Translations under genes and position numbers: made by a program
Shown: piece after piece, positions 1 to 12,775 of the stretch
Numbering within the stretch: the first letter of the stretch is position 1
Layout of the letters: the number at the start of each line of letters is the position of its first letter
The notes under the pieces: model-generated
The model's input: only the letters and a program-made list of their open reading frames with translations
What the model was told of the DNA's origin: nothing
Database searches by the model: none
Assembly (NCBI GenBank): GCA_964467735.1
Contig: CAYXSR010000003.1
Coordinates: 1,078-65,077, forward strand
DNA length: 64,000 nucleotides
Source of the DNA: an uncultured Pseudomonadales bacterium
GTDB lineage: Bacteria; Patescibacteriota; Microgenomatia; UBA1400; CAYXSR01
Direction: 5' to 3'

Positions 1-1
1 T

Positions 2-484
2 GTTATAGGAGATGGTATAAATACGATTAAAAAACTTATTGATCGATTAAATAATAAGAAAAACGTCAGAAATGAACAAATCGGAATTGCTACTTTTAGC
101 CCAGTAATTATTGATGATAGTTTAAGACAAACTCTTGAAAAACAAAACCTAAGGTTAAATTCTGTTCCTTCAAGAGATCAAAAAGTTAATTTGTTAGAAA
201 CTGCCAATCGAGCCTCCGGAGGTTTTACTTATGTTATAAATAATTGGAATGAGGTTGTTCATCCTGAGATTTTAGAAACTATGATCGATGCGACCAAAGC
301 GCTGGCTTTAAAGTTCGCCGCCATTGATGTTGTTTTGAAAAGTTTAGAAATGCCGCTTGGAAAAAAGAACGGTAAGATAATTGAAATCAATTCATCTCCG
401 GGAATTAATATGTTTCACTATCCGGATTCTGGCAAACCACAATTTGTTGCCAAAAAAATAATCAGTTACATCGTCAAAAATTAA
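2..484 (+). CDS. ATP-grasp family ligase, C-terminal portion (5' end lies upstream of the window)
   Basis: Open frame runs from window position 2 (VIGDGINTIKKLIDRLNN...) to the stop at 484. The GDG...TIK motif and the C-terminal '...IEINSSPG' resemble the ATP-binding/C-terminal subdomains of RimK/cyanophycin-synthetase-type ATP-grasp enzymes. Convergent with the next ATP-grasp gene. Confidence 0.45.
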   Translation, partial: VIGDGINTIKKLIDRLNNKKNVRNEQIGIATFSPVIIDDSLRQTLEKQNLRLNSVPSRDQKVNLLETANRASGGFTYVINNWNEVVHPEILETMIDATKALALKFAAIDVVLKSLEMPLGKKNGKIIEINSSPGINMFHYPDSGKPQFVAKKIISYIVKN

Positions 485-511: not shown

Positions 512-1966
512 TTAAATTCTTCTCTTTTTGATCTTTCTTAATCCAAACTCTTTATAAACTAGTTTAATAATTTTTTTAACAGATGGTGCCAGTTTTGTAC
601 TATCCTTCTTATCTAATACTCGTTTTTTGAAAACTAACTTACCAATTCTTAAAATTGGCTTTACTACTTGACCTTTTTGTGGCAAACCATCAGTTACTAG
701 AAGTTCATTTTCCAAATCATGAATATCAAAAGTGGTAAAACCAGGACGAATAAAATTAATTTTATTTTTATCAAATCGATAGATGCCTGGTCTTACATCT
801 TTGGTAACTAACTGATAATCATGGGTTAAATTATTGAGAACCAAATGGCTTCCTTGCTTTGGTCTTTTATAAAGATTATCGATTGTTTTAAAATCCATCT
901 GATAGTTAAGTTTTAAAAGTTCTAATAGGTGAAAAACGTCAAAAGGTGGCTCTTCTTGTTCCATTTGCAACATTGAATAAATTGGAAAAGCGCCAGTATA
1001 ACGCGGATTACATTCACAAGGATAAACTTCTTCAGTTTTCTTATCAACCAATAAATCAATTCCAAAAATGCCTCGATAACTGTGTTTCCACATATATTCA
1101 CCCACTTTTTGAGCAATCAATTCTGCTTGTTTTTGAACTTTTTCAGAATAAACTTTAAAACTCCAATCATGACCACAAAACAAACCACTACCTTTGTCTA
1201 GATTTACAATTGTTGGTTGATCTAAAATTTGTGTTTGAACCGGTCCAGTTAGAATTCCAAAACGAGTAACACAACCAGTAATACTTGGCGAAAAAGCATC
1301 AATGTATTTGGTAACAATCACATGACGCAAATTAAATTGAGAAGACCAAGTAGCAACTTTTTCTTTAAATTTATTAAAATCAGTTATCTTTTTGACAAAC
1401 ACTAAAGAGTACCCTCCTCCTTTCGTAAGCTCTGGCAGAATCAACACTACTTTTTTCCATTTTTTTAAAAAGATTGCTAATTTTTGCTTTGTCAATTCAG
1501 ATATTTTTAATTTCTCTCCAGGAGCAACTTTCACTTTTACCTTCTTAAGTAAAGATCGAAAAAAATCTTTGTTTTCATATGGATCTCTTATTGATGCTCG
1601 ATTAGCAACAATATGCCAGCCAAACTTATCACAAACTTTCTCAATATTCTCTGTTGAGCGATATAAAACTAAATAGGGTTTTGTAGCTAAAGAATTTAGA
1701 TATTCCTGCACTCTAGGATTTTTGACAATTGTCAACGTATTATATTTACCTGCTTTCTCTCCTCTTTTAGTAAAGTTCCTTTCTACCGAAAGAGTTTTCA
1801 TTTTTTGAGCAATTAAATCATTTTCCGCGGCATCCTTCATTCCAATTAACTGATAATCTTTTTTTATTAACCCCGGAACAACTCGATGAAAAGCATTAAT
1901 ATCTAAACCAATTAAAGGCTTTTTAAACTTCAATAATGGAGAAAAGTAATCAGTTTTCATTTTCAA
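512..1966 (-). CDS. ATP-grasp domain carboxylate-amine ligase (484 aa)
   Basis: Full-length ORF. Central and C-terminal ATP-grasp signatures (…GGGYSLVFVKK…, …GIFGIDLLVD…EVYPCECNPR). 17-bp overlap with the upstream ATP-grasp/protease gene, so it sits in the same operon. Confidence 0.6.
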   Translation of the reverse strand: MKMKTDYFSPLLKFKKPLIGLDINAFHRVVPGLIKKDYQLIGMKDAAENDLIAQKMKTLSVERNFTKRGEKAGKYNTLTIVKNPRVQEYLNSLATKPYLVLYRSTENIEKVCDKFGWHIVANRASIRDPYENKDFFRSLLKKVKVKVAPGEKLKISELTKQKLAIFLKKWKKVVLILPELTKGGGYSLVFVKKITDFNKFKEKVATWSSQFNLRHVIVTKYIDAFSPSITGCVTRFGILTGPVQTQILDQPTIVNLDKGSGLFCGHDWSFKVYSEKVQKQAELIAQKVGEYMWKHSYRGIFGIDLLVDKKTEEVYPCECNPRYTGAFPIYSMLQMEQEEPPFDVFHLLELLKLNYQMDFKTIDNLYKRPKQGSHLVLNNLTHDYQLVTKDVRPGIYRFDKNKINFIRPGFTTFDIHDLENELLVTDGLPQKGQVVKPILRIGKLVFKKRVLDKKDSTKLAPSVKKIIKLVYKEFGLRKIKKRRI

Positions 1967-3260
1967 TATTGATCATAAAACCTTTTAGGTCTCGACGGCC
2001 AATAATCATTGGTCTTTTTAATTTTGAGCGGTCAGAAATGTTGGCTACTGTTTTAATTTTTCTGTCTTTTAACCAAAAAACTAATTCTACTAATGGCCTT
2101 CTTTCTCTTCCTAAAGCGCTTCGATAATATTTTTCCAGCAAGACATTTTCCGGATTTAAAAGTCCTAATTGTTCAGCTAACTTTTCATCGATTGATGTCC
2201 GGTAAGCACCAGTGTCAATTTTTGCCTTAACAGGGACTCTTTCTCCTAAAAATGTTCTTACTTCTATTGTTTCAAAAACATCAACGGTTCTCTTACCAGT
2301 TCCAATGTCTCTTAATTTCGGATTGGCAAATAATTCTTTAGAGATTTTTATTCCTTTTTCAGCTGATTCTACTTTTAATCCTTCTATTCTTAGTAAACGA
2401 CGTCTTAAGCCAGCTCGGTTAGCTAATTGAATTTTTAGACCTGGTTGAGCATTCAACTCTAAAACCTTAGGAAATGTTTTTCCGGGTTTTTTTAAAGATG
2501 GCTGAAGAGTAATATCAGCTCTCATAAACCCCAATTTCGGAATCGCAATTTGACAATTAACTGCCAGCTTTAAAACCTCGTCCCACTCGGGAATTTTAAT
2601 TCCTGATAATTTCCTTCTTGTTCCGGGGAAAAACTTTATTGGATCTGTCCATTTAATTGCATAAGTTGTAATTCCGGTTGCCATATCAATTCCACAAGCA
2701 ATTGCCCCTTGGAACATATTGGCTCGGCCGCCAGATTCTTTTGTTGGCAGTCTAAGGTAAGCCATCACTGGCACTCGATTAAAAACCAAAACCCCAATAT
2801 CTGGAGTTCCTCCCCAACAAACTTTTTTAAAAGCAGGGTGAATTCTTATTCTTTCTTCAACAAAAGCAATATCGGGTTTGTTTTCCATAGAAAACCGACC
2901 CTCTAAGATGTCTTGAATAAGCAGCTTAAAATCACCAATTGTTTTTGTTTCCCCTGTAGTTGTAACCCATTCTCCAGCATATTTACCATGTTTAGCAATT
3001 ACTAATATTCCTTCTCCCCCTAAAGAGTTATCTGGTTTTATAACAAAACTCTCTGGGAGTTTTTTTATAAAATCAAACTTATCAATTTCTTCAACTTTTC
3101 TAAAAACTCGATAAAGCTTTGGAATAGGCAATTTTGCTTTTCTTAAGGCTGATTTTGTCAATAATTTATGATTAGCAATTTTTTTTCCGGAGACTCTATT
3201 ATATCGAGAAAGGAAAAGAGTATTGCGGGCATTCATGCCCAAAATGTCTCGAATTTTCAT
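1950..3260 (-). CDS. alpha-L-glutamate-ligase-like (RimK-related) ATP-grasp enzyme fused to a C-terminal retropepsin-like 'ATP-dependent Zn protease' domain
   Basis: N-terminus 'ILGMNARNTLFLSRYN' and the body match the RimK-related alpha-L-glutamate ligase-like family. The C-terminal ~120 aa ('VPVKAKIDTGAYRTSID…') matches the retropepsin-like Zn_protease domain that is normally a separate neighbouring gene. 4-bp overlap with the upstream 7TM gene. Confidence 0.6.
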   Translation of the reverse strand: MKIRDILGMNARNTLFLSRYNRVSGKKIANHKLLTKSALRKAKLPIPKLYRVFRKVEEIDKFDFIKKLPESFVIKPDNSLGGEGILVIAKHGKYAGEWVTTTGETKTIGDFKLLIQDILEGRFSMENKPDIAFVEERIRIHPAFKKVCWGGTPDIGVLVFNRVPVMAYLRLPTKESGGRANMFQGAIACGIDMATGITTYAIKWTDPIKFFPGTRRKLSGIKIPEWDEVLKLAVNCQIAIPKLGFMRADITLQPSLKKPGKTFPKVLELNAQPGLKIQLANRAGLRRRLLRIEGLKVESAEKGIKISKELFANPKLRDIGTGKRTVDVFETIEVRTFLGERVPVKAKIDTGAYRTSIDEKLAEQLGLLNPENVLLEKYYRSALGRERRPLVELVFWLKDRKIKTVANISDRSKLKRPMIIGRRDLKGFMINIENEN

Positions 3261-4204
3261 TTTAGAAGACTCTTAAATTTCTTATATTCTAATAGTCTTA
3301 AACCAGCATACTTCCCCACAAAAATATCAAAAACAGCTATTCCAATAATACTTGCTTCTGGATAAAGCAGAACAAATTTCTGTAAAAATTCTAGCTGTAA
3401 AAATAAAGAACAAAATAAGGCAATTACTAAAGTTTCAAAAGTCATCTTCACCGCCTGTTTCATTGACATACCAATATGAATACTAATAAAGTTTTCTGCT
3501 AAAAGAATCAAAATTAAAATTGGAAAAATTGAAAGAGTCATAATTGTCGTAAAATTTAAAACCGGAGCGATAAACAAAACTGCTAAAACACCCAAAGACA
3601 CAAACCACAAAAGTAAGGCCATTCTTGGTAAATATTGAATCTTTATCTTTCGCAAAACTATTCTTGCCCCTGTTGCCACAATGATAATGGTTAAAAAAAG
3701 AAGCAGACCTTCAAAAACACCTGTGGAGACAAAGACAACAGAAAGAACTACGGGCAGAAAAATACCAAAACCTTCCATTCCTATTAAATGTCTCAAACCA
3801 GCAATAATCGCCGCCACTAAAGGAAATAAAAGAATTAAAACCACTGTGTTTGCAGGAACTCCTCTTTTAATAATAAAGCGGATTGCGTGCTGAAGAGGAT
3901 TAGTAAATGTTAATGGCTTTAAGGGATGTTCTGCCAAATGTCTTTCTAATTTATCTTTAATCTCTGGAGTTGGTTCAGTAATATCTGGTTTTTTTTCAAC
4001 TACTCTTTCGACTATTGGTTGAGCTGATTCGCTTGCCTGGGCAGTTGAAGTTGACTCTAAACTTTCATCTACATTTTCAGTGGTAATATTGGAAACCACT
4101 GTTTGTGCCTCTACAAGCTGAGGCTTAAAATTAAAGAAAAATAGAAATACAATTAGAAATAGAAAAATCTTCTTCATCTTCTCTATATTATAACAAAGAA
4201 GCAT
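3257..4204 (-). CDS. polytopic (about 7 TM) membrane protein with N-terminal signal/secreted region; 7TM partner of the ligase/protease system
   Basis: Signal-like N-terminus, a Ser/Thr/Glu-rich extracytoplasmic segment, then about 7 hydrophobic helices. The position corresponds to the 7TM component of the 7TM-transglutaminase / ATP-grasp / retropepsin triads, but no transglutaminase domain is recognisable here. Confidence 0.45.
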   Translation of the reverse strand: MLLCYNIEKMKKIFLFLIVFLFFFNFKPQLVEAQTVVSNITTENVDESLESTSTAQASESAQPIVERVVEKKPDITEPTPEIKDKLERHLAEHPLKPLTFTNPLQHAIRFIIKRGVPANTVVLILLFPLVAAIIAGLRHLIGMEGFGIFLPVVLSVVFVSTGVFEGLLLFLTIIIVATGARIVLRKIKIQYLPRMALLLWFVSLGVLAVLFIAPVLNFTTIMTLSIFPILILILLAENFISIHIGMSMKQAVKMTFETLVIALFCSLFLQLEFLQKFVLLYPEASIIGIAVFDIFVGKYAGLRLLEYKKFKSLLK

Positions 4205-4228
4205 TAGTCAACAATTAGTAAAGAAATT

Positions 4229-5203
4229 TTACTGACAACCGCCAGTATCTCCAGTTGCAGCTTGAGAAGATAAAGTTGTTTTGCATTCTTTTGGTGGATT
4301 ATCAAAAGAATTACAAATAGCGCTCTTCAAGGCCTCTGGTGTTCGCAGCTGAGTAGCATTAAAGTCTGTCTCATTAATCCTTAATCCTTTATTATAGGCT
4401 TCATTGGGTGGATACAAGACGCCATTAATAAAGATTGTTGGTGAGCCGCTAACTCCACCCATCTGCTCAGCAGCCGCTATATCAGTTCTTAACAAATCAG
4501 TTCCCTGGTTATTAGCACATTCCTCAATCTTGGCGACATCAAATCCTGCTTTTTCTGCCCATTGCTGCCAACACTCACCAATATTATCTAAAGTACAGTT
4601 AGTATTTAAATCATTTACAAATTGCCACCATTTAGTTTTATCCTCAGCCATGTTAAAAGCACAAATTTCGCGGACATCTTGTTTTAACTCCTCTTCTCCG
4701 TGAAGAGAATCGAATGTGCCGATTTCTAAAGGATCACATTCTCCAGTAATACATTCATCAACTGTGTTATAAGGAAAATATTGTTTACAAGTTTCCATGT
4801 CTGGCAATTGACCCTGCTTTATTGCATCTTCACAGCGTTTTTTATTCTCATCATTAAAAAGCCGCTGAGGACAACTTGTTTGGCAAGCATCTTTTGTTTC
4901 TTGAGTAATCTCAGAAACAATATAGCGTGGTTGCCATTCGACTTTATCGCCTAATAAATCAGCGACTGGCTTCAACCCTGTCTCAGCTTGATTACCATAA
5001 GGACAATAACTCATAACAAAAAACTCAATTTTAGGTTTTTTATTCTTAGAAGCTTCAAAAATAGCCGGATCTTCTAATTTTACTTGAGCTCCTTGGACAT
5101 TTTTATTGGTTTTTTCTGCCTGAATTTTATTAAATAAATTTCCCGCTCCAAAAGCTACTATCACTAATAATCCTATTAAAATAGTGTTTGTTTTTAGCTT
5201 CAT
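4229..5203 (-). CDS. secreted/anchored cysteine-rich thioredoxin-fold (DsbA-like) protein
   Basis: The likely start is the internal Met (MKLKTNTILIGLLVIVAF… signal/anchor); the 5245 start in the ORF track would overlap the ferredoxin. A thioredoxin-like 'FFVMSYCPYG' segment is followed by more than 14 further Cys residues and a 'GSPTIFINGV' DsbA-like C-terminus. Confidence 0.5.
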   Translation of the reverse strand: MKLKTNTILIGLLVIVAFGAGNLFNKIQAEKTNKNVQGAQVKLEDPAIFEASKNKKPKIEFFVMSYCPYGNQAETGLKPVADLLGDKVEWQPRYIVSEITQETKDACQTSCPQRLFNDENKKRCEDAIKQGQLPDMETCKQYFPYNTVDECITGECDPLEIGTFDSLHGEEELKQDVREICAFNMAEDKTKWWQFVNDLNTNCTLDNIGECWQQWAEKAGFDVAKIEECANNQGTDLLRTDIAAAEQMGGVSGSPTIFINGVLYPPNEAYNKGLRINETDFNATQLRTPEALKSAICNSFDNPPKECKTTLSSQAATGDTGGCQ

Positions 5204-5403
5204 TTTTGCTCCATTTCCTGCCAGGAAATTGCTTGAACCGGACAACCATCTATGGCTGATTGAATTGTTTGTTCATCATCTCCTGTTGGATTAACAACAA
5301 CACTTTTACCATTATCATTCAATTTAAAAGTCTTCCCGGCTATCCCCACACAAGCGCTACAACCAATACATTTATTCGCATCAACAATTGGGTTTTTTGC
5401 CAT
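5200..5403 (-). CDS. small ferredoxin (single 4Fe-4S/3Fe-4S cluster type)
   Basis: 67 aa with CIGCSACVGIAG…CP, the classic Cx2Cx2C…CP motif of small mono-cluster ferredoxins. Confidence 0.75.
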   Translation of the reverse strand: MAKNPIVDANKCIGCSACVGIAGKTFKLNDNGKSVVVNPTGDDEQTIQSAIDGCPVQAISWQEMEQK

Positions 5404-5476
5404 TTTTTTCTCCTTTTTAAATTTGGTTTTTAAATATAGAGGAAGTATACCAGAATCTTTTTCTGATTGCTATATT

Positions 5477-6454
5477 CTAAATTCCTCGCTGTTGAGGAGC
5501 CATTTCTTTTCTTAAATAAACATAAGCTGATCGGCTAGCCAACGCTCCCATTCCACAAGCAGTTATCATTTGAGCAAAACCATAAATAAAATCAGTACAA
5601 TCACCAGCTGCAAAAATTCCTGAGATGTTCGTATTCATCCACTTATCTACTTTAATAAACCCCTGTTCGTTCATTTCTATCCCCATTTCTTGCGCCAAAT
5701 TTGTTCCAGGAACGCCACCTATCTCAATAAATACTCCATCCACAATAAGTTCTTTCTGATTTTTGTAAGGCTTATCTAAAATTATTTGAGTAACCTTCTG
5801 GCCATCCCCTTTAATTTCAACAACATTAGTATCATAAATTGTTTCTCCTTTGCCTGATTTCTCGATATTTTTCCATTCATTTATCCAAGCTGGTTCAGCC
5901 CGTAATTGATCTTTACGATAAATAATGTAAACTTTTTTAGCATATTCTGAGGCATGAACTGCTCCAGAAACTGCTCCATCTGAACCGCCAACTAAGACAA
6001 CAATCTTGTCTTTATAGAAAGGAGCATCACAAGTAGTACAGTAGGAAACTCCTTTTCCTAAATATTCATCTTCGCCATTAATTCCTAAGGTTCGTCTTTC
6101 TGTCCCACTGCTAATAATTAGAGATTTCGCCTGATAAGTTTGTCCTGAAAGAGTATAAACAACGAAGTCTTGTTCATTATTTTTAGTAATTTTTTGAACC
6201 GGATCATAGACAACTGACGTTCCCAAACCCTTAGCATGTTCTTCAATTTTCGTCATTAAATCAAGTCCAGGAATACTCCTGAAACCGGGGTAATTTTCTA
6301 CTTTATGAGCTAAACCAATTGTTCCCCCAATTTTTTTACCTAAAACTAGGTTGGTCAAATTATAACGGCTGGCATATATTGAGGCAGTCAAGCCAGCCGG
6401 ACCGGAACCGATAATAATTAAATCATAAACCATTTTTCGAGTCCCAATAAGCAA
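5477..6454 (-). CDS. trxB: thioredoxin reductase (NADPH)
   Basis: FAD motif IIIGSGPAGLTA, redox-active CTTCD disulfide motif, second NAD(P)H Rossmann motif VVLVGGSDGA; about 325 aa. Confidence 0.9.
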   Translation of the reverse strand: MLIGTRKMVYDLIIIGSGPAGLTASIYASRYNLTNLVLGKKIGGTIGLAHKVENYPGFRSIPGLDLMTKIEEHAKGLGTSVVYDPVQKITKNNEQDFVVYTLSGQTYQAKSLIISSGTERRTLGINGEDEYLGKGVSYCTTCDAPFYKDKIVVLVGGSDGAVSGAVHASEYAKKVYIIYRKDQLRAEPAWINEWKNIEKSGKGETIYDTNVVEIKGDGQKVTQIILDKPYKNQKELIVDGVFIEIGGVPGTNLAQEMGIEMNEQGFIKVDKWMNTNISGIFAAGDCTDFIYGFAQMITACGMGALASRSAYVYLRKEMAPQQRGI

Positions 6455-6476
6455 TCAAGTACAAGCTTGAGATAAT

Positions 6477-6800
6477 TTATTTATTATACTTTTTTAAAGT
6501 CTCTATTATTTCTTCTTTTGGTCTTGCTCCCACTAATCTTTCCATTTCTTGACCATTTTTAAATACCACCATTGTGGGTACACTCATAATACCATACTTA
6601 CTGGCTGTTCCAGCAGCCTTATCGACATCGACTTTAGCAATTTTATATTTATTACCAACTTCTCCGGCAACTTCTTCGATTATTGGTCCTAGCATTCGAC
6701 AAGGAGGACACCAAGTCGCCCAAAAATCAACTAATACTACGCCTTTCTCGTCCAAGACTTCTTTTTGAAACTTATCATCAGTTAAATGTAAAACTGTCAT
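6477..6800 (-). CDS. trxA: thioredoxin (active site WCPPC)
   Basis: 107 aa with 'VLVDFWATWCPPCRMLGP…MSVPT…F.NG' thioredoxin fold; active site CPPC rather than the canonical CGPC. Confidence 0.9.
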   Translation of the reverse strand: MTVLHLTDDKFQKEVLDEKGVVLVDFWATWCPPCRMLGPIIEEVAGEVGNKYKIAKVDVDKAAGTASKYGIMSVPTMVVFKNGQEMERLVGARPKEEIIETLKKYNK

Positions 6801-6808
6801 TTTTCTCC

Positions 6809-7045
6809 TTAGAAATTAGAAATCTTTTTTAACATTTCTCTTACTTTTTCTTCTTTATTTTCTCTTAAACAAGAAACGGTTTCCTCAGTTAAAATTTCTC
6901 TAGCTAAACTAGCCAAAGCACTTCTTACCGCACTTATTTGCTGAACAACTTCTAAACATTTCCTTCTCTCTTTATACATTCTTTCTATACCATCAAGTTG
7001 TCCCTTTATTCTAGCTATTCTGGTTATTATTTTATCTTCTGGCAT
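6809..7045 (-). CDS. CsoR/RcnR-family metal/persulfide-sensing transcriptional repressor (Cys-x-Cys type, CstR-like)
   Basis: 78 aa all-helical protein with the CsoR/DUF156 pattern. The sensing positions are Cys30 and Cys59 with Glu, not His, at the 'Y' position, as in the persulfide sensor CstR rather than the Cu sensor CsoR. Confidence 0.75.
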   Translation of the reverse strand: MPEDKIITRIARIKGQLDGIERMYKERRKCLEVVQQISAVRSALASLAREILTEETVSCLRENKEEKVREMLKKISNF

Positions 7046-7068
7046 CTTTAAATTGCTTCTTCCTTATC

Positions 7069-7110
7069 TATACTCCCACCCAGTATATTCATCTGTTCGT
7101 CTTTTGTCAA
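7069..7110 (-). promoter_or_regulatory. sigma70-like promoter (TTGACA-17-TATACT) with an overlapping ATACT-GGGTGGG-AGTAT inverted-repeat operator, upstream of the csoR-like gene
   Basis: On the minus strand: TTGACAaaagacgaacagatgaaTATACTgggtgggAGTATA. The -35 is 7105-7110, the -10 is 7082-7087 and the palindrome is 7069-7087. CsoR-family operators are G/C-tract-centred inverted repeats of this type. Confidence 0.45.
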
Positions 7111-8216
7111 GTATTTAATAAAAATCTAACTTTTCTGGACCTAATAATTTTTGATTTTTCTTTTACTTTCTCCCAGTTTTTTTCTCCTTCTTTTTTGGCT
7201 GCCATTGTGCCTTGTCGCGGAGAATAGCGGAAAACATGTGTCTTTCTAAATCTCTTGCCAAGTAATTTTTTAAATTTTTTTAAAGTAATCATCGTTTCTT
7301 CAAATTCTTCTTGGGTTTCTCCTGGAAAACCAACAATGATATCGGTCGAAAAAGAAAAATTAGGAATAATTTTTTTCAAAATTTGAAGTTTTCTAAAAAA
7401 GTCTTCAACGCCATATTTTCTTCTCATTCTTGCTAAAACATTGTTACAGCCAGATTGAAGAGGAATATGAAAATGACTAGTCAGTCTAGGTTGGATTTTT
7501 TTATCTTCGTATAATTTTAAAAATTCCCTATTAAAAGCATTGATATTAATTGAACCAAAAGATATTTTGTCTATTTTTGTGAATTTTAAAATATCTTTAA
7601 CTAGTTTAGCTAAACTAGGCTGATAATCACTTACTTCTACTCCTGTTAAAATTATTTCTTTTATCCCCTCTTTTATTTGTATATTAACTTCTTTAATAAT
7701 TTCCTTAATAGGTCTTGAAATTGAACGACCCCGCAAAAAGGGCACGATACAATAAGTACAAAAATTATTGCAACCTTCTTGAATTTTAATTAATGCTTTT
7801 CCTGAACTGGCATATTTGTCTTTATAAAAATTAGCCAACAAGGGTTTTTTAAAACAGCCTAATTTCTTTTTCAAAATTTCTGGAAGCTTCATTTTATTCT
7901 TATTCTCTATCAATAAATCAATTGAGGAAGAAAATTTTCGAGGAGATTTTTTAAATAGCTTTTCTGCCCAACAGCCAGAAACAATTAAAAAACAATCAGG
8001 ATTCTCTCTTTTAATTTTCCTGATCATTTGCCGTACCTCTTTATCAGCCTTTTGAGTCACACTACAGCTGTTAATAATAACAATATCTGCTATTGATAAA
8101 CTATTAACAACCTTTAATCCGGGAAACCGAGAACATAAAGCTTCTCCCATCATTCGGCTCTCTGCTTGGTTTAAACGACAACCAAAAGTTATTAATTTCA
8201 AATTGAACCTAACCAT
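7107..8216 (-). CDS. radical-SAM methylthiotransferase (MiaB/MtaB/RimO family, no obvious TRAM domain)
   Basis: N-terminal MTTase Cys triad (FGCRLN…NSCSV…SGCWAE) plus radical-SAM CNNFCTYC motif. Confidence 0.8.
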   Translation of the reverse strand: MVRFNLKLITFGCRLNQAESRMMGEALCSRFPGLKVVNSLSIADIVIINSCSVTQKADKEVRQMIRKIKRENPDCFLIVSGCWAEKLFKKSPRKFSSSIDLLIENKNKMKLPEILKKKLGCFKKPLLANFYKDKYASSGKALIKIQEGCNNFCTYCIVPFLRGRSISRPIKEIIKEVNIQIKEGIKEIILTGVEVSDYQPSLAKLVKDILKFTKIDKISFGSININAFNREFLKLYEDKKIQPRLTSHFHIPLQSGCNNVLARMRRKYGVEDFFRKLQILKKIIPNFSFSTDIIVGFPGETQEEFEETMITLKKFKKLLGKRFRKTHVFRYSPRQGTMAAKKEGEKNWEKVKEKSKIIRSRKVRFLLNT

Positions 8217-8235
8217 ATTTGAAGATTAGAGGTTT

Positions 8236-8964
8236 TTATTTTTCAGCAACTAAAGTTCCAATCTGTGCTCCTCGAACAATTTCTGGAATCTTACCAATAT
8301 CTTTAACACTAAAAACAATAATTGGTTTTTTCTTTTTCCAACATAAAGCAAATGCCGTTGCATCCATTACTTCTAAATTTTTCTCAATTGCTTGTTTATA
8401 GGTTAATTTAGAAAAACGGGTAGCTTTTGGATTTTTCTGAGGATCTTCAGAATAAATACCATCTACATTTGTTGCTTTCAAAATAGCATCGCAATTAATT
8501 TCACAAGCCCTTAAAGCTGCTGCTGAATCAGTAGTGAAAAAAGGGCTTCCTGTTCCGCCAGCAAAAATAACAATTCTACCTTTTTCTAAATGACGAATGG
8601 CTTTCCTACGAATAAAAGGTTCAGCAATAGCTTTCATCTCTAAAGCAGTCATCATTCTGGTCGGCATTCCTAATCTCTCCAAGGCCTCCTGTAACGCCAG
8701 ACCATTAATTACTGTTCCTAACATCCCCATATAGTCAGCTACTGTTTCATCAACACTTCGTCCCTCTATTTCGCGACCGCGAAAAATGTTACCGGCGCCA
8801 ACCACAATCGCTAACTGAATAGAATTCTTCTCTTTTATTTTAATAATATTGTGGGCAATCTTTTCATAGGCAGAAAAGGAAATACCCCAACCGTCTTTCT
8901 TTCCAAAAAGTTCGCCGCCTAATTTTAAAATTACTCTTTTATATTTAAGTTTTGTATCAACCAT
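8236..8964 (-). CDS. pyrH: UMP kinase
   Basis: 'RVILKLGGELF' N-terminus and amino-acid-kinase fold signature throughout; 242 aa. Confidence 0.9.
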   Translation of the reverse strand: MVDTKLKYKRVILKLGGELFGKKDGWGISFSAYEKIAHNIIKIKEKNSIQLAIVVGAGNIFRGREIEGRSVDETVADYMGMLGTVINGLALQEALERLGMPTRMMTALEMKAIAEPFIRRKAIRHLEKGRIVIFAGGTGSPFFTTDSAAALRACEINCDAILKATNVDGIYSEDPQKNPKATRFSKLTYKQAIEKNLEVMDATAFALCWKKKKPIIVFSVKDIGKIPEIVRGAQIGTLVAEK

Positions 8965-9086
8965 ACTCCCCCTTCTTTATAAAAAGAACACCTAAAAGGT
9001 GCTCTTTTGAATTTCAAAATAATTTATAAAAATAGTCTTTGGGCTCAAAAAAAAATTCCTCATTTGTAAGATATTATACAAAAATA

Positions 9087-9818
9087 TTAATTTTTAGCAA
9101 ATTTTTTATTAATTAAAAAGAAAATGGAAAAAAATATCAGGACAAGACTTATCAATTGGTTAATCCTAAATTTGCCTACCAACCAGCTGTCAATCCGTAA
9201 AAATTCCAACCAAAAACGGCCTAAGCAATATAAAAAGAGATATAACAAAAATAGTTTTCCATTTTTAAGTTTATCCTTATTTTTTATTAAAATTAAAAAA
9301 ATAGCTAAATCCCAAAAACTCTCATATAAAAATAGAGGGTGAAATCTTGAGAAATTTTCATAGCCTGGAAGTCTGTTTTCAGGACTAATGAAAATACCCC
9401 AAGGAAGTTTAGTAGGTAAACCATATAATTCCTCGTTAAGGAAATTCCCCCAGCGACCAATTGCTTGAGCTAAAGGTAAGCTCAAACAGATAACGTCCAC
9501 CAATTTCAAAAAGTCTTTTCTTGTTAGTTTGGTAAACTTAGCAAATAAAAATAGACCTAATACTCCACCAACCAAGGCTCCAAAAATTCCAAGTCCTCCT
9601 TGCCAGATTAGAAATATCTCTCCAGGGTTTTGTTTGTAATATGGCCGGAAGCTAATCATATGGTATATTCGTGCTCCAATTATTCCGGGAATAACAATCC
9701 AGGGGAAAATATCAAAAACAGAGATTCCAATTTCAAAAGGCTTATTTTTTCTAAATTTTTCAACTACAAAAATTGCTATTAAAATTCCTAGAGCAATTAA
9801 AAAACCATAAAAATTCAC
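9087..9818 (-). CDS. lgt: prolipoprotein diacylglyceryl transferase
   Basis: Polytopic membrane protein with the Lgt signature region '…QAIGRWGNFLNEELYG…'. Confidence 0.85.
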   Translation of the reverse strand: MNFYGFLIALGILIAIFVVEKFRKNKPFEIGISVFDIFPWIVIPGIIGARIYHMISFRPYYKQNPGEIFLIWQGGLGIFGALVGGVLGLFLFAKFTKLTRKDFLKLVDVICLSLPLAQAIGRWGNFLNEELYGLPTKLPWGIFISPENRLPGYENFSRFHPLFLYESFWDLAIFLILIKNKDKLKNGKLFLLYLFLYCLGRFWLEFLRIDSWLVGKFRINQLISLVLIFFSIFFLINKKFAKN

Positions 9819-9828
9819 TTTTGTTTCC

Positions 9829-10389
9829 TTAAACCATTAATGAAAGAAGGACAAAAAAAGTTGTAACAATATATAAATAAAATTTTTGCTCTTCTAGGGT
9901 TACTTCTCTTTTAACTTGCCAAAAAAGCCAATCAAACCTTTTCCACTTTTTAAAGTCTTGCCATTCTTTCAAAAGAAGATGTAAACCAACACCCATAATT
10001 ACTCCCTTACCCAATAAGTTTGGTGTTGAAGTTAAAACAAAAATTGCTAGCACCAACCAACAAACTTGAAAAAGAACACTTTTAAAAGCTAAATGTCTCA
10101 TTTCATTTTCTTTCGCTTTCAAAATATTGATTCCTTGCTTCCATTTCTTCTGATTAAATAGAAATTTAACTTCTTCGGAAATTTTATTATCTGATTCAGT
10201 AAAATAAACCCAAATTAATTGATCTAGAAGTAAAAAATTCCAACCAATCAATCCACCACTAAACCATAAAAGTATTTTACTAAGATTTGTTAATAAAAAA
10301 GCTGTTGAAAAATAAAGTCCACTCCTAAAAAGAATTTTTAGAAAGATTAATAAAAAATATCCCAAAAACAGGGCAGAATTTCTTTTCAT
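9829..10389 (-). CDS. hypothetical membrane protein
   Basis: 186 aa ORF with several hydrophobic helices, tightly packed between lgt and the downstream genes; no recognisable motif. Confidence 0.4.
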   Translation of the reverse strand: MKRNSALFLGYFLLIFLKILFRSGLYFSTAFLLTNLSKILLWFSGGLIGWNFLLLDQLIWVYFTESDNKISEEVKFLFNQKKWKQGINILKAKENEMRHLAFKSVLFQVCWLVLAIFVLTSTPNLLGKGVIMGVGLHLLLKEWQDFKKWKRFDWLFWQVKREVTLEEQKFYLYIVTTFFVLLSLMV

Positions 10390-10432
10390 TAAATCTAGTA
10401 TAACAAAAAGAGAATTAAAAGAAAGATTTGCT

Positions 10433-10696
10433 TTATATATAAAAGGGAAATCCAGTCAAACGAAACATTACTAATTCTTGGAGTTGTGGATTTGGTAAAA
10501 TTGGTGTTACACCTTTTTCTACCATTGCTTGTCTCACCTGAAATGCTGCGTCTGACAATTCAGTCAAATCTTGAGCCTCTCGATAACCAACTCTTTCTCC
10601 TTTGCTATTTACCAAAGGAACTAATCCTTGTTCAGCTATAATTAAAGAAAGATCTTGTAGGCCAAATGGACTAAATTCAGATAAATTTAATGTCAT
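10433..10696 (-). CDS. hypothetical protein, or C-terminal extension of the PP-loop ATPase via frameshift
   Basis: 87 aa ORF overlapping the 3' end of the PP-loop gene by 20 nt in another frame. It could be a separate small protein or a frameshifted C-terminal domain. Confidence 0.3.
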   Translation of the reverse strand: MTLNLSEFSPFGLQDLSLIIAEQGLVPLVNSKGERVGYREAQDLTELSDAAFQVRQAMVEKGVTPILPNPQLQELVMFRLTGFPFYI

Positions 10697-11606
10697 AAAC
10701 AGGGATTATATCATATTTCCCGTATTTCTCTATTAAAGCCTTAGTTTTTTTAATATTTTGTTTTTGAACTAACTGATTATTATTCTTAATATTTTTCTTA
10801 ATTAAGGCCGTCGGACCTCCAAAGTTTTTAGGAATAATTAAAATATCGCCTTCTAATACTTTCTTTTCTAACTGCTGATTTTCTCGTTCATTTCTTCCTA
10901 AAATAATCTGTGTTTTTCCTCGCCAAAAATGACGACCAATCCTTAAAAGTTCTATATCTTTCGGCTGACAATCTGGATTTTTCTTAAATAAATCAAGTAG
11001 CTTTTTAGAAAATCCTTTCTCTGTCAAAATACAGCCACCAGCTGGCTGAGGAAAAATTAATTTATATTTCTTAGCTAATTTAAGTTGTTCATATCTTCCC
11101 CTACCTTTTACGAAAAGAAGAAATTCTGACTTTACCCAACCTTTTTCTTCTGGAATTGTCTTTGGTAATAATTTTGCTGAAAGGGGCCTTAATAAAAGTT
11201 CTTTTAAACCAGATTTTTGGGCAATTAAAATCAACGCCTTTTTATTTTGAGAAAAAGGTCTTTCACCTAAAACTTCGCCGGTAGCGACAAAATCAAATCC
11301 TTTTTCTTCCATTACCTTTCTCGCTTTTTTAAGCATTAAAAGATGACAATCAATACATGGATTAGCGGCTGATCCTCTGCTAAACTTTGGTTTCTTAACA
11401 ATTTGAAGGTGCTCTTCAGAAATATCAATTATTCGACAAGGAATTTTTAGCTGTTGACAGGCTTGCTTACCTTTTCTTTCATTAAAAAAACAACTTTTAA
11501 AAACCAAACCAGTAACATCAATATCGCTTTCTTTTAAAAGTTTTGCGGCTAACATTGAATCTAAACCTCCGGAGATTAAAACAAGCGCTTTTCTTTCCAT
11601 CTTCAT
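10677..11606 (-). CDS. PP-loop superfamily ATP pyrophosphatase, ThiI/TtuA/MnmA-like tRNA thiolation enzyme
   Basis: N-terminal PP-loop 'ALVLISGGLDSMLAAKLL' (SGGxDS) and a downstream 'ATGEVLGERPFSQN' segment resembling the ThiI 'TGESLGQVASQT' region. Confidence 0.6.
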   Translation of the reverse strand: MKMERKALVLISGGLDSMLAAKLLKESDIDVTGLVFKSCFFNERKGKQACQQLKIPCRIIDISEEHLQIVKKPKFSRGSAANPCIDCHLLMLKKARKVMEEKGFDFVATGEVLGERPFSQNKKALILIAQKSGLKELLLRPLSAKLLPKTIPEEKGWVKSEFLLFVKGRGRYEQLKLAKKYKLIFPQPAGGCILTEKGFSKKLLDLFKKNPDCQPKDIELLRIGRHFWRGKTQIILGRNERENQQLEKKVLEGDILIIPKNFGGPTALIKKNIKNNNQLVQKQNIKKTKALIEKYGKYDIIPVYDIKFI

Positions 11607-11872
11607 CTAATAACTTTAAAATCTTTAAATCCTTCTGGTTTTTCTTCTTCAATCTTTACATCAGAGACTTGAGCTAATGGTGGGCCTTGCCAACACCATT
11701 CAACCATTTGATTCACTTGTTCTTCATTGCCTTCAAATACAGCTTCCACTCCGCCATTGTGGGCATTTCTTACCCAACCATTAATTCCTAATTTCTCAGC
11801 CTTATGCCGACAAAAAGCCCTAAAACCTACTCCTTGAACCCGACCAATTATAAAAACTTTAACTTTTTTCAT
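11603..11872 (-). CDS. acyP: acylphosphatase
   Basis: 'VFIIGRVQGVGFRAF…GINGWVRNAHNGGVEAVFEGNEEQV' are the two acylphosphatase signatures. The start is taken at the internal MKKVKV rather than the over-extended 11953 start. Confidence 0.8.
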   Translation of the reverse strand: MKKVKVFIIGRVQGVGFRAFCRHKAEKLGINGWVRNAHNGGVEAVFEGNEEQVNQMVEWCWQGPPLAQVSDVKIEEEKPEGFKDFKVIR

Positions 11873-12203
11873 TCTTTTTCTCCTTTTTAAGCTGTTGAAC
11901 TTTCCACATAAACAACCTTCCTTTACTTTTAACATTAGTGGCGTCTTTAACAAAATTTTTTGCCCGTTCCAAAATATCCCTTGGTAGCTCTTTGGCCATT
12001 TTAATAAAAAGACTAGCTCGCTTTTCCTCGTCTAACTCACAAGCCAAACGATAACCATAATCCTGAAATTCTCGAGTAATATATTTTTTCTTTGAATAAT
12101 CCCAGGATTTCAATATCTTACCTAAAGATTGCATGCCAGTGATCGTTTTTCTTTTAACCACTCCTCCCTCCAATCTTAATATCTTTTTTAGTATATGATA
12201 CAA
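11859..12203 (-). CDS. hypothetical protein
   Basis: 114 aa, Lys-rich, no recognisable motif; directly upstream of acyP on the same strand. Confidence 0.35.
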   Translation of the reverse strand: MYHILKKILRLEGGVVKRKTITGMQSLGKILKSWDYSKKKYITREFQDYGYRLACELDEEKRASLFIKMAKELPRDILERAKNFVKDATNVKSKGRLFMWKVQQLKKEKKNEKS

Positions 12204-12214
12204 TACTCACTTGT

Positions 12215-12775
12215 ATGATCAAAGCAATTAACTTAAATCGAGGTTCATTTCTAAATTACAAAAATCGTCCTTACGTTGTTACTGAACGAGAATTTTATTC
12301 TCCCGGCAAAGGTTCAGCAATTGTCCGACTAAAACTTAAAGATGTCAAAACTGGCGTGGTAAACAAAGTTGTTTTTAAGACTACTGAAATGGTTGAAGAA
12401 ATTAGTGTTGAACAACAAGAATTTCAATATCTTTATCAAGGTAATGGTGCTTTTTGTTTTATGAGTCCCCAGACGTTTGAACAAATAGAGATTCCTGAAG
12501 AATTAGTTATTGATGATAAATACTTTCTAAAAGAAGGTGAGACTTATAAGATCCTTTTTTATGAAGATAAACCAATAAAAATAAAACTCCCTTTAAAAAT
12601 GGAAATGGAAGTTACTGAAGCCGAAAATGCTGTTAAAGGCGACACCGTCACTGGAGCTACTAAAGAGGTTAAATTAGAGACTGGACTTGTTATAAAAGTA
12701 CCTCTTTTCATCAAAAAAGGCGAAAAAATTTTGGTTAATACTGAAAATAAAGAATACGTTGGCCGTTCTAATTAG
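12215..12775 (+). CDS. efp: elongation factor P
   Basis: 186 aa with 'YSPGKGSAIVRLKLKDVKTG' loop (the modifiable Lys is conserved) and three-domain EF-P length. Confidence 0.9.
   Translation: MIKAINLNRGSFLNYKNRPYVVTEREFYSPGKGSAIVRLKLKDVKTGVVNKVVFKTTEMVEEISVEQQEFQYLYQGNGAFCFMSPQTFEQIEIPEELVIDDKYFLKEGETYKILFYEDKPIKIKLPLKMEMEVTEAENAVKGDTVTGATKEVKLETGLVIKVPLFIKKGEKILVNTENKEYVGRSN

Follow-up and report, generated by a model that had tools for sequence, protein, structure and literature searches.

The 6.6 kb between positions 7110 and 512 of contig CAYXSR010000003.1, counted within the 64 kb stretch that was analysed as a whole (the window), encode a CsoR-family repressor, a thioredoxin (Trx) and a thioredoxin reductase (TrxR)-like protein, a ferredoxin, a Cys-rich protein of thioredoxin-like fold, and a ligase module comprising a seven-transmembrane (7TM) protein, a ligase::peptidase fusion and a further ATP-grasp enzyme. 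The initial annotation had read these genes as a single operon in which the redox genes serve the ligase system as a dedicated module. Based on profile searches, alignments and neighbourhood surveys we consider it likely that the stretch is instead made up of three functionally separate cassettes which are adjacent by descent in one clade, and that the redox genes do not act as a supply reserved for the ligase. We refer to csoR-trxA-trxB as cassette A, to the genes of the ferredoxin (fdx) and the Cys-rich protein as cassette B, and to the 7TM, fusion and ATP-grasp genes as cassette C. Eight open reading frames (ORFs) run from 7045 to 512, all on the minus strand and in the order previously given, and the family assignments hold in profile searches. 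The features are:

7082..7110, minus strand: sigma-70-like promoter; -35 TTGACA at 7110-7105, 17-nt spacer, -10 TATACT at 7087-7082
7069..7087, no strand assigned: predicted CsoR/RcnR-type operator, TATACT-GGGTGGG-AGTATA, a TAC/GTA inverted repeat round a G tract
6809..7045, minus strand: CsoR-family repressor, 78 aa (PF02583, 1.5e-21)
6477..6800, minus strand: TrxA, 107 aa, with WCPPC (TIGR01068 and PF00085)
5477..6454, minus strand: TrxB-like flavoprotein, 325 aa, with CTTC (TIGR01292)
5200..5403, minus strand: ferredoxin, 67 aa (Fer4_13, 4.4e-15)
4229..5203, minus strand: Cys-rich protein of GILT/VSR-TRX/DsbA fold, 324 aa (VSR_TRX 9e-11, DSBA 1e-5, GILT match)
4230..4247, minus strand: weak terminator-like hairpin, overlapping the stop codon of the Cys-rich gene
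3257..4204, minus strand: 7TM protein (PF14402, 7TM_transglut, 2.9e-24)
1950..3260, minus strand: ATP-grasp::retropepsin fusion (ATPgrasp_ST 2.2e-55; TIGR02291 8.8e-73)
512..1966, minus strand: second, divergent ATP-grasp, 484 aa (NCBIfam PRK06524-like, 9e-41, far under the cut-off)
1..484, plus strand: C-terminal part of a RimK-like ATP-grasp, its ORF truncated by the window start (weak RimK match)

The overlaps at 5200-5203, 3257-3260 and 1950-1966 are all real according to the ORF coordinates. The statement that every gap is 4-30 bp or negative holds for these overlaps and fails at the trxB-fdx junction, which measures 73 bp. Between the Cys-rich and the 7TM gene lie 24 bp, or 51 bp if the 7TM protein starts at the ATG at 4177. 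Nor is the minus-strand run bounded at about 7110 as had been proposed: it extends to 11953, taking in mtaB, pyrH, lgt and other genes, and the -35 element of the csoR promoter overlaps with the stop codon of the mtaB-like gene that precedes it. The minus strand carries 46 of the 56 ORFs in the window that are 90 aa or longer; as this bias is the background of the window, the co-orientation of the eight genes carries little information. The genome setting is gene-dense, strongly strand-biased and Microgenomates/Beckwithbacteria-like.

Gene neighbourhoods of the ligase and of the Cys-rich protein

The ligase-anchored survey took one genome per species and comprised 80 loci at 38-66% identity, against which the window proteins were searched; individual loci are denoted by L numbers. 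The 7TM gene stands directly upstream of the ligase in 77 of the 80 loci, and downstream of it we found RimK-like ATP-grasp genes in 43 and the 484-aa ATP-grasp type in about 15. Of the 47 loci having at least 7 kb of upstream flank, 13 have a TrxB gene no more than 10 kb away. In a neighbour-joining tree of the ligases all 13 Trx-positive loci fall into one clade with the window, L075 standing beside it on a long branch, and the four other large clades, whose named members are Woese-, Shapiro-, Levy-, Moran- and Kerfeldbacteria, contain no Trx-positive locus. These clades have stable neighbours of their own next to the module (ribosomal L10/L12, RuvC/YebC, MnmA), which is, as far as gene order tells, the pattern of lineage-specific synteny. 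The redox-ligase adjacency is not an accident of one genome; it recurs in one clade. The comparative check suggested by the initial annotation, co-localisation in other Patescibacteria, thus has a divided outcome, with recurrence in this clade (13/47) and absence from four clades and from 34 of the 47 loci.

The arrangement is loose even among close relatives. In L081 (73% ligase identity) the order is csoR-trxA-trxB-GDH-SHMT-fdx-DsbA-7TM-ligase-ATP-grasp. L082 (80%) has csoR-trxA-Zn-ribbon-trxB-GDH, two genes on the opposite strand, and then SHMT-flavodoxin-fdx-GILT-like-TP_methylase-7TM-ligase. In further relatives the space between trxB and the DsbA-like gene is taken up by a malic-enzyme-like gene, by a toxin-antitoxin pair or by long opposite-strand genes. 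L001 (66% ligase identity), which of the 80 genome-collection loci is the one closest to the window in the ligase tree, has five opposite-strand genes upstream of its 7TM gene. L167 and L168 (59-63%) have no redox genes, and the genes directly ahead of their 7TM gene are unrelated or on the opposite strand; L166 retains a remnant GDH-DsbA 6.5 kb away, with three opposite-strand genes between it and the module. The claim of a 'dedicated' redox module does not withstand this comparison, since TrxB occurs near the ligase in one clade only, is separated from it by unrelated genes and is missing in L001, L167 and L168. In 22 of 65 loci the 7TM gene is preceded by an opposite-strand gene; the ligase module can therefore start its own transcription and is an autonomous unit. 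The adjacency of cassettes A and B to C would be synteny inherited within one clade, and the compact layout of the window would represent the same syntenic block after loss of the intervening housekeeping genes.

The survey anchored on the Cys-rich protein comprised 80 metagenome loci, with counts limited to those having enough flank. In 51 of 70 loci the Cys-rich gene is immediately preceded by a ferredoxin gene, at a median gap of 15 bp (at most 20 bp in 41 of 53). By comparison, a 7TM or ligase gene is present in one of the 33 loci with at least 3 kb downstream, and TrxB upstream in two of 34. Because of these differences in adjacency, the gene order identifies fdx and the GILT-like gene as the tight unit; the Trx link is loose, and the ligase link is confined to the relatives of the window. 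In L083-L085 the fdx and GILT-like genes are followed by a SpoU methylase gene and no ligase, and in two of these loci trxA-trxB-(GDH or G6PD) lies a few kb upstream of the pair. We also considered the Cys-rich protein as the substrate of the ligase, which is unsupported, as its family almost never neighbours the ligase (1/33).

Upstream of the csoR promoter, the minus-strand genes at 7107-11953 (mtaB-pyrH-lgt and a 186-aa membrane protein) are partly common to the relatives: L081 has pyrH-mtaB ahead of csoR, and L007-L017 and L075 have lgt and a similar-sized membrane protein there. This partly shared mtaB/pyrH/lgt synteny supports, at the level of gene order, a vertical inheritance of the whole block. 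Many loci, among them L005, L007-L011, L013, L015 and L016, have the gene content of Patescibacteria under public titles such as 'uncultured Pseudomonadales/Gammaproteobacteria/Bdellovibrionales', labels that look wrong.

The repressor, the thioredoxin genes and the ferredoxin-linked pair

The promoter ahead of the csoR-like gene (7110..7082, TTGACA-17-TATACT) agrees with the sigma-70 consensus at 11 of 12 positions and is the best of 29 sigma-70-like matches in 10 kb. Together with a CsoR-type operator, this bears out the promoter that had been placed at about 7069-7110. The operator (7069-7087) overlaps the -10 element, and a TAC/GTA inverted repeat round a G/C tract is the CsoR/RcnR operator type (PMC10318464). 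Its sequence occurs once in the window and none of 100 shuffles matches it; a looser pattern shows no enrichment elsewhere, and a pattern scan revealed no second CsoR operator ahead of fdx or the 7TM gene. The element is conserved among relatives, with TACT-N7-AGTA just ahead of the csoR homologues in L002, L075, L081 and L082 and a TACCCCC..GGGGTA variant ahead of those in L009 and L012.

The repressor contains two cysteines, Cys30 and Cys59, no histidine at the copper-ligand position (x-C-x-C), and a glutamate four residues before Cys59. In an alignment with nine homologues the first Cys is invariant, the second is present or shifted, and the His is found in none. Its matches to the NCBIfam RicR, FrmR and RcnR models are all far under the cut-offs (RicR, 47.6 bits versus 175). 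Cys at positions X and Z without His at Y is the fingerprint of thiol- or persulfide-sensing members of the CsoR family such as CstR. The CsoR fold, the Cys...Cys pattern and the missing His are in agreement with the CstR-like regulator named in the initial annotation. A role as a Cu(I)-sensing CsoR was rejected because the repressor has no His ligand, the C-H-C ligand set being incomplete in the window protein and in all nine homologues. As the protein has two Cys and no copper-ligand His, we infer that its signal would be thiol oxidation or persulfidation: once its thiols are modified in this way it would leave the DNA, yielding more Trx and TrxR under thiol stress.

TrxA matches TIGR01068 at 6.3e-36 (122.6 bits, above the cut-off of 96.8) and PF00085 at 5.4e-33. 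The TrxB-like protein aligns along its entire length with TIGR01292 (1e-96; 323.3 bits, slightly short of the 343.45 cut-off) and matches Pyr_redox_2 at 3.7e-46; its NADPH motif, read from the sequence, is partly canonical (GGSDGA; YRKDQLR), and it is possibly 318 aa long, starting from the ATG at 6433. It is the single TrxB-like ORF in the window. The two proteins have the hallmarks of an NADPH-thioredoxin system, namely a WCxPC thioredoxin and a low-molecular-weight TrxR with CxxC and FAD/NAD(P)H domains. Cassette A would be the thioredoxin system of the cell, with a sigma-70-like promoter and a CsoR-family operator over its -10 element, and its sequence features make an autoregulated csoR-trxA-trxB unit well supported. 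We found nothing in the literature on a link between CsoR and trx genes in Patescibacteria. A Cys-only CsoR-family repressor and a conserved operator ahead of trxA-trxB hint at control of thiol homeostasis in minimal genomes.

In relatives, trxB is directly followed by a GDH or G6PD gene, or by a gene of about 398 aa judged by eye to encode a malic enzyme (L081 5389-6663; L082 2885-4201; L083 4600-5931; L085 5045-6361; also L007, L009, L012 and L013). From their position these dehydrogenases are possible NADPH suppliers for TrxR. The window has no such gene between trxB and fdx.

The ferredoxin has four Cys (CxxCxxC...CP) and is predicted to hold one [4Fe-4S]-type cluster. Its gene begins 73 bp past trxB with a good AAGGAG ribosome-binding site, and its stop codon overlaps the start of the Cys-rich gene (ATGA). 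For the Cys-rich protein, previously credited with more than 14 Cys, we count exactly 14, of which 12 are invariant in the family, as is a C-terminal GGC tail. The thioredoxin-like fold that had been proposed for it is confirmed as a thioredoxin-superfamily fold. Its Pfam GILT and DSBA scores are at or under the cut-offs, and an invariant VMSxCP[YF]GNQ motif places CxxG where DsbA and GILT have CxxC; the combination of a CxxC site and the CQHGxxECxxNxxxxC signature on a GILT fold, which defines GILT, is not found in it. A hydrophobic N-terminal helix at about residues 3-27 (helix 4-35 in the AF2 model) is consistent with the suggested signal peptide, though it may be an uncleaved anchor. By this topology the Cys-rich domain is probably located outside the membrane.

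The family has 253 members, and all those with names belong to Patescibacteria. Cassette B would be a tightly coupled, Patescibacteria-wide pair of a ferredoxin and a membrane-anchored GILT-like protein. Judged from its sequence, the latter most probably acts outside the cytoplasm, as a monothiol oxidoreductase or isomerase stabilised by disulfides. The pairing of a cytoplasmic ferredoxin with a probably extracytoplasmic monothiol protein of thioredoxin fold, seen across loci L083-L148, is puzzling. A literature search for bacterial GILT homologues returned nothing, and a bacterial GILT-fold family with a CxxG site beside a ferredoxin gene constitutes a family without assigned function.

The 7TM protein and the ligase module

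The 7TM protein has a signal-like N-terminus, an acidic, Ser/Thr-rich linker and a 7TM_transglut domain, its N-terminal 115 residues being a helix and low-complexity linker. It likely starts at the ATG at 4177, which is better placed. It matches PF14402 at positions 57-247 and the NCBIfam RloB model at 312-507 of 508 (65 bits versus a cut-off of 900), and profile searches gave no match to a transglutaminase domain. The initial annotation had positioned this protein to pass reducing equivalents across the membrane. The thiol conduits DsbD/CcdA, DsbB and VKOR all depend on conserved Cys pairs. Among 74 homologues of the 7TM protein 45 have no Cys at all, 21 have one and eight have two, and no alignment column exceeds 20% Cys. 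Since the family has no conserved Cys, a relay of the DsbD/CcdA/DsbB kind is ruled out, and the proposed transfer is refuted for any thiol relay.

Six relatives encode a CcdA/DsbD-like membrane protein (GINPCA and TPCSLP motifs; weak PF11139 match, 1.7e-12) between lgt and csoR/trxA, at L007 4806-5537, L009 4336-5064, L011 5849-6574, L013 3577-4452, L016 6098-6826 and L017 5952-6677. Its motifs and position make it a plausible candidate for the real conduit of electrons from Trx to the outside in these relatives. It is not present in the 64 kb window.

In the fusion protein, residues 1-300 form a RloC/TIGR02291-like ATP-grasp amino-acid ligase and residues from about 340 to 436 a retropepsin-like aspartic peptidase. 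The ligase part scores 245 bits against TIGR02291 over residues 3-300, under the curated cut-off of 314.2, and 188 bits against Pfam ATPgrasp_ST, above the cut-off. The peptidase part matches Zn_protease, RloA3 and RloA2, and its DTG is intact at 349-351, D349 and G351 being invariant in the homologues. Hydropathy indicates neither a transmembrane (TM) segment nor a signal sequence. The fusion has more than 4235 homologues; the top 120 have the same length and architecture, and those with names are all Patescibacteria.

The second ATP-grasp gene (512-1966) overlaps the stop of the ligase gene by 17 nt. Its product has no Pfam match, and its homologue in L081 carries ATP-grasp_3. PDB sequence searches with both ligases found no relative. 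The RimK-like gene at 1-484 is convergent with the gene of the 484-aa ATP-grasp and brings the ATP-grasp enzymes of the neighbourhood to three; its homologues occupy the same convergent position in L082, L005, L020 and L004 and stand in line in L074 and L075.

In P. aeruginosa the RloABC system consists of the ATP-grasp RloC, the 7TM protein RloB with an inactive transglutaminase domain, and the secreted retropepsin RloA, and the hypo-osmotic and envelope defects seen in strains without the RloA peptidases are suppressed once rloB or rloC is deleted (PMC12239564). In the Rim system RimK adds glutamates to ribosomal protein S6, and RimB, a cytoplasmic retropepsin-like peptidase, trims them (PMC12239564). 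Cassette C, with the 7TM protein, the fusion, the second ATP-grasp and the third, convergent one, would be a Patescibacterial version of such Rlo/Rim systems. By analogy we infer that it would add amino acids to a carboxylate in an ATP-dependent manner. The ligases would extend a protein C-terminus with amino acids, probably glutamate, or else synthesise a peptide or poly-amino-acid; trimming of this product would fall to the fused aspartic peptidase, and the role of the 7TM partner would be to tie or organise the ligase activity at the membrane. Nothing in the data points to a thiol requirement of the ligase module.

In L075 a gene for a MATCAP/DUF1704-like metallo-carboxypeptidase (11279-12259; PF08014, 1.9e-23) directly follows the ligase::peptidase gene. 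By its family, this gene would fit a system that adds and removes C-terminal tails.

Alternative readings and relation to known systems

A dedicated module, in which reducing equivalents of Trx, TrxB and ferredoxin pass via the 7TM protein to a secreted Cys-rich substrate, carrier or ligase partner, would account for the co-directional genes, the short gaps and the one strong promoter, and for the Trx-ligase neighbourhood in 13 related species-level loci and in L081, L082, L086 and L099. It is very hard to reconcile with a 7TM family that has no conserved Cys and in 45 of 74 members no Cys at all, and with the CcdA/DsbD-like protein of the relatives, which adjoins csoR/trxA and not the ligase. 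The Cys-rich family occurs without a ligase in 32 of 33 loci, the ligase without Trx in most loci and four whole clades, and housekeeping and opposite-strand genes interrupt the 'operon' in close relatives. Moreover, the ligase fusion has no TM or signal sequence, and the Cys-rich domain is probably outside the membrane. We therefore regard a dedicated module as highly improbable. More room is left for co-regulation only, by which gene loss would have put the ligase module under read-through from the CsoR promoter, to be expressed with the thiol-stress response and without biochemical coupling. We found no strong terminator between 7082 and 512, four junctions overlap or span at most 24 bp, and the sole operator is that at the csoR promoter. 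On the other hand, the spacers of 73 bp between trxB and fdx and of 24-51 bp before the 7TM gene hold -10-like elements, with a weak hairpin there, and the 7TM gene is often the first of its unit in relatives. This hairpin (4230..4247), the only internal one between 7082 and 512, has seven pairs and is weak (fold z = -2.2), and the TTGACT/TATAAT-like pair after it has a poor spacer of 13-15 nt. Neither is conserved in L086, an 85-91%-identical relative; being weak and unconserved, they were not taken as a terminator or promoter that would put the Cys-rich and 7TM genes on separate transcripts. Read-through from the csoR promoter into cassette C may occur, and co-regulation without coupling is a possibility that we hold tentatively.

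By a link at the level of the envelope, the extracytoplasmic DsbA/GILT-like oxidoreductase and the 7TM-ligase module of this clade would both serve one cell-surface process, such as the folding of an exported target or its processing, and the cytoplasmic Trx would be uninvolved. This is supported by 19 of about 65 loci, more than by chance, in which the 7TM gene directly follows a DsbA-family gene of the CPFC or the GILT-like CxxG type. Among these loci is a second ligase clade (L023, L027, L031) that lacks nearby Trx and ferredoxin genes. The position is kept despite the differing type of oxidoreductase (L081 versus L082 and the window), and Rlo mutants of P. aeruginosa have envelope phenotypes (PMC12239564). 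Against it, no DsbA-like gene occurs within 10 kb in the Woese-, Shapiro-, Levy-, Moran- and Kerfeld-type clades, insertions separate the DsbA-like from the 7TM gene in L002, L006, L008 and L082, the GILT-like family stands beside the ligase in one of 33 loci, the outside-facing linker of the 7TM protein offers no Cys to act on, and other clades have equally stable and plainly non-functional neighbours (ribosomal L10/L12, RuvC, MnmA). A profile search with the CPFC DsbA-like neighbours was dominated by tandem-DsbA proteins of other phyla and gave no usable contexts. Altogether an envelope-level link appears unlikely. Still less probable, in our view, is that in the Beckwithbacteria-like clade a thiol- or persulfide-sensing CsoR-type repressor controls, by read-through, Trx, the ferredoxin-coupled GILT-like protein and the Rlo-like ligase/peptidase together, whereby thiol stress would lead to envelope peptide-tailing with the GILT-like protein acting on the exported product. 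In a narrower form of this proposal, the ferredoxin/GILT-like pair alone would be a new ferredoxin-linked bacterial thiol-redox system.

Several observations weigh against three separate cassettes. The adjacency of redox and ligase genes is far above expectation, which is approximately 2% for 20 kb chosen at random in a genome of about 1 Mb, and a DsbA-family gene stands directly ahead of the 7TM gene in two ligase clades, that of the window and that of L023/L027/L031 without Trx. The junctions in the window are short, with no convincing terminator between the cassettes; judged from this sequence, co-transcription of the cassettes, and hence co-regulation by the CsoR-like repressor, is possible. 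Copies of trxA and trxB were assessed within 64 kb of the genome. Separate cassettes kept adjacent by common descent nevertheless remain the likely reading. Each cassette is a variant of something known or belongs to an uncharacterised family, and the composite system is not supported. A composite 'redox-powered peptide-ligase machine' would, if true, be a system of a new kind, and we advise against carrying it forward.

With CstR and other non-metal members of the CsoR family (S. aureus CstR, T. thermophilus TTHA1953; PMC10318464) the window repressor shares the family fold, two Cys without the copper-ligand His, and an operator with a TAC/GTA inverted repeat overlapping the promoter. In contrast to CstR it precedes trxA-trxB rather than sulfide-oxidation (cst/sox) genes, and its operator has the G-tract typical of CsoR/RcnR sites. 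The Cys-rich protein differs from GILT, the plant VSR thioredoxin-like domain and DsbA/BdbD in that CxxC is replaced by an invariant CP[YF]G, and in being bacterial, membrane-anchored, equipped with a GGC tail and paired with a ferredoxin gene.

Cassette C resembles RimK/RimB in combining a cytoplasmic ATP-grasp enzyme of the alpha-L-glutamate-ligase type with a cytoplasmic retropepsin-like trimming peptidase, and RimK-like paralogues adjoin the module in 43 loci. However, the main ligase is of the ATPgrasp_ST/TIGR02291 type with no significant match to RimK (PF08443), and it is fused to the peptidase and paired with a 7TM partner (77/80 loci). The likeness to RloABC lies in a TIGR02291-like ATP-grasp, a PF14402 7TM protein and a retropepsin-like peptidase that are adjacent and co-directional; the three activities are encoded together, with the 7TM gene directly ahead of the fusion in 77 of 80 loci. 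Unlike RloB, the window 7TM protein has no periplasmic inactive-transglutaminase domain, and the peptidase is joined to the C-terminus of a cytoplasmic ligase without a signal peptide, whereas RloA is separate and secreted. One to three extra ATP-grasp genes accompany the module of the window type, and its host phylum is Patescibacteria, while 96% of RloB matches were found in Proteobacteria (PMC12239564). The idea of a Rlo/Rim-type ligase-peptidase pair would thus extend to Patescibacteria in a compact form, with a 7TM-only partner, a fused cytoplasmic retropepsin and thousands of homologues, and this form would broaden a system so far studied only in Proteobacteria.

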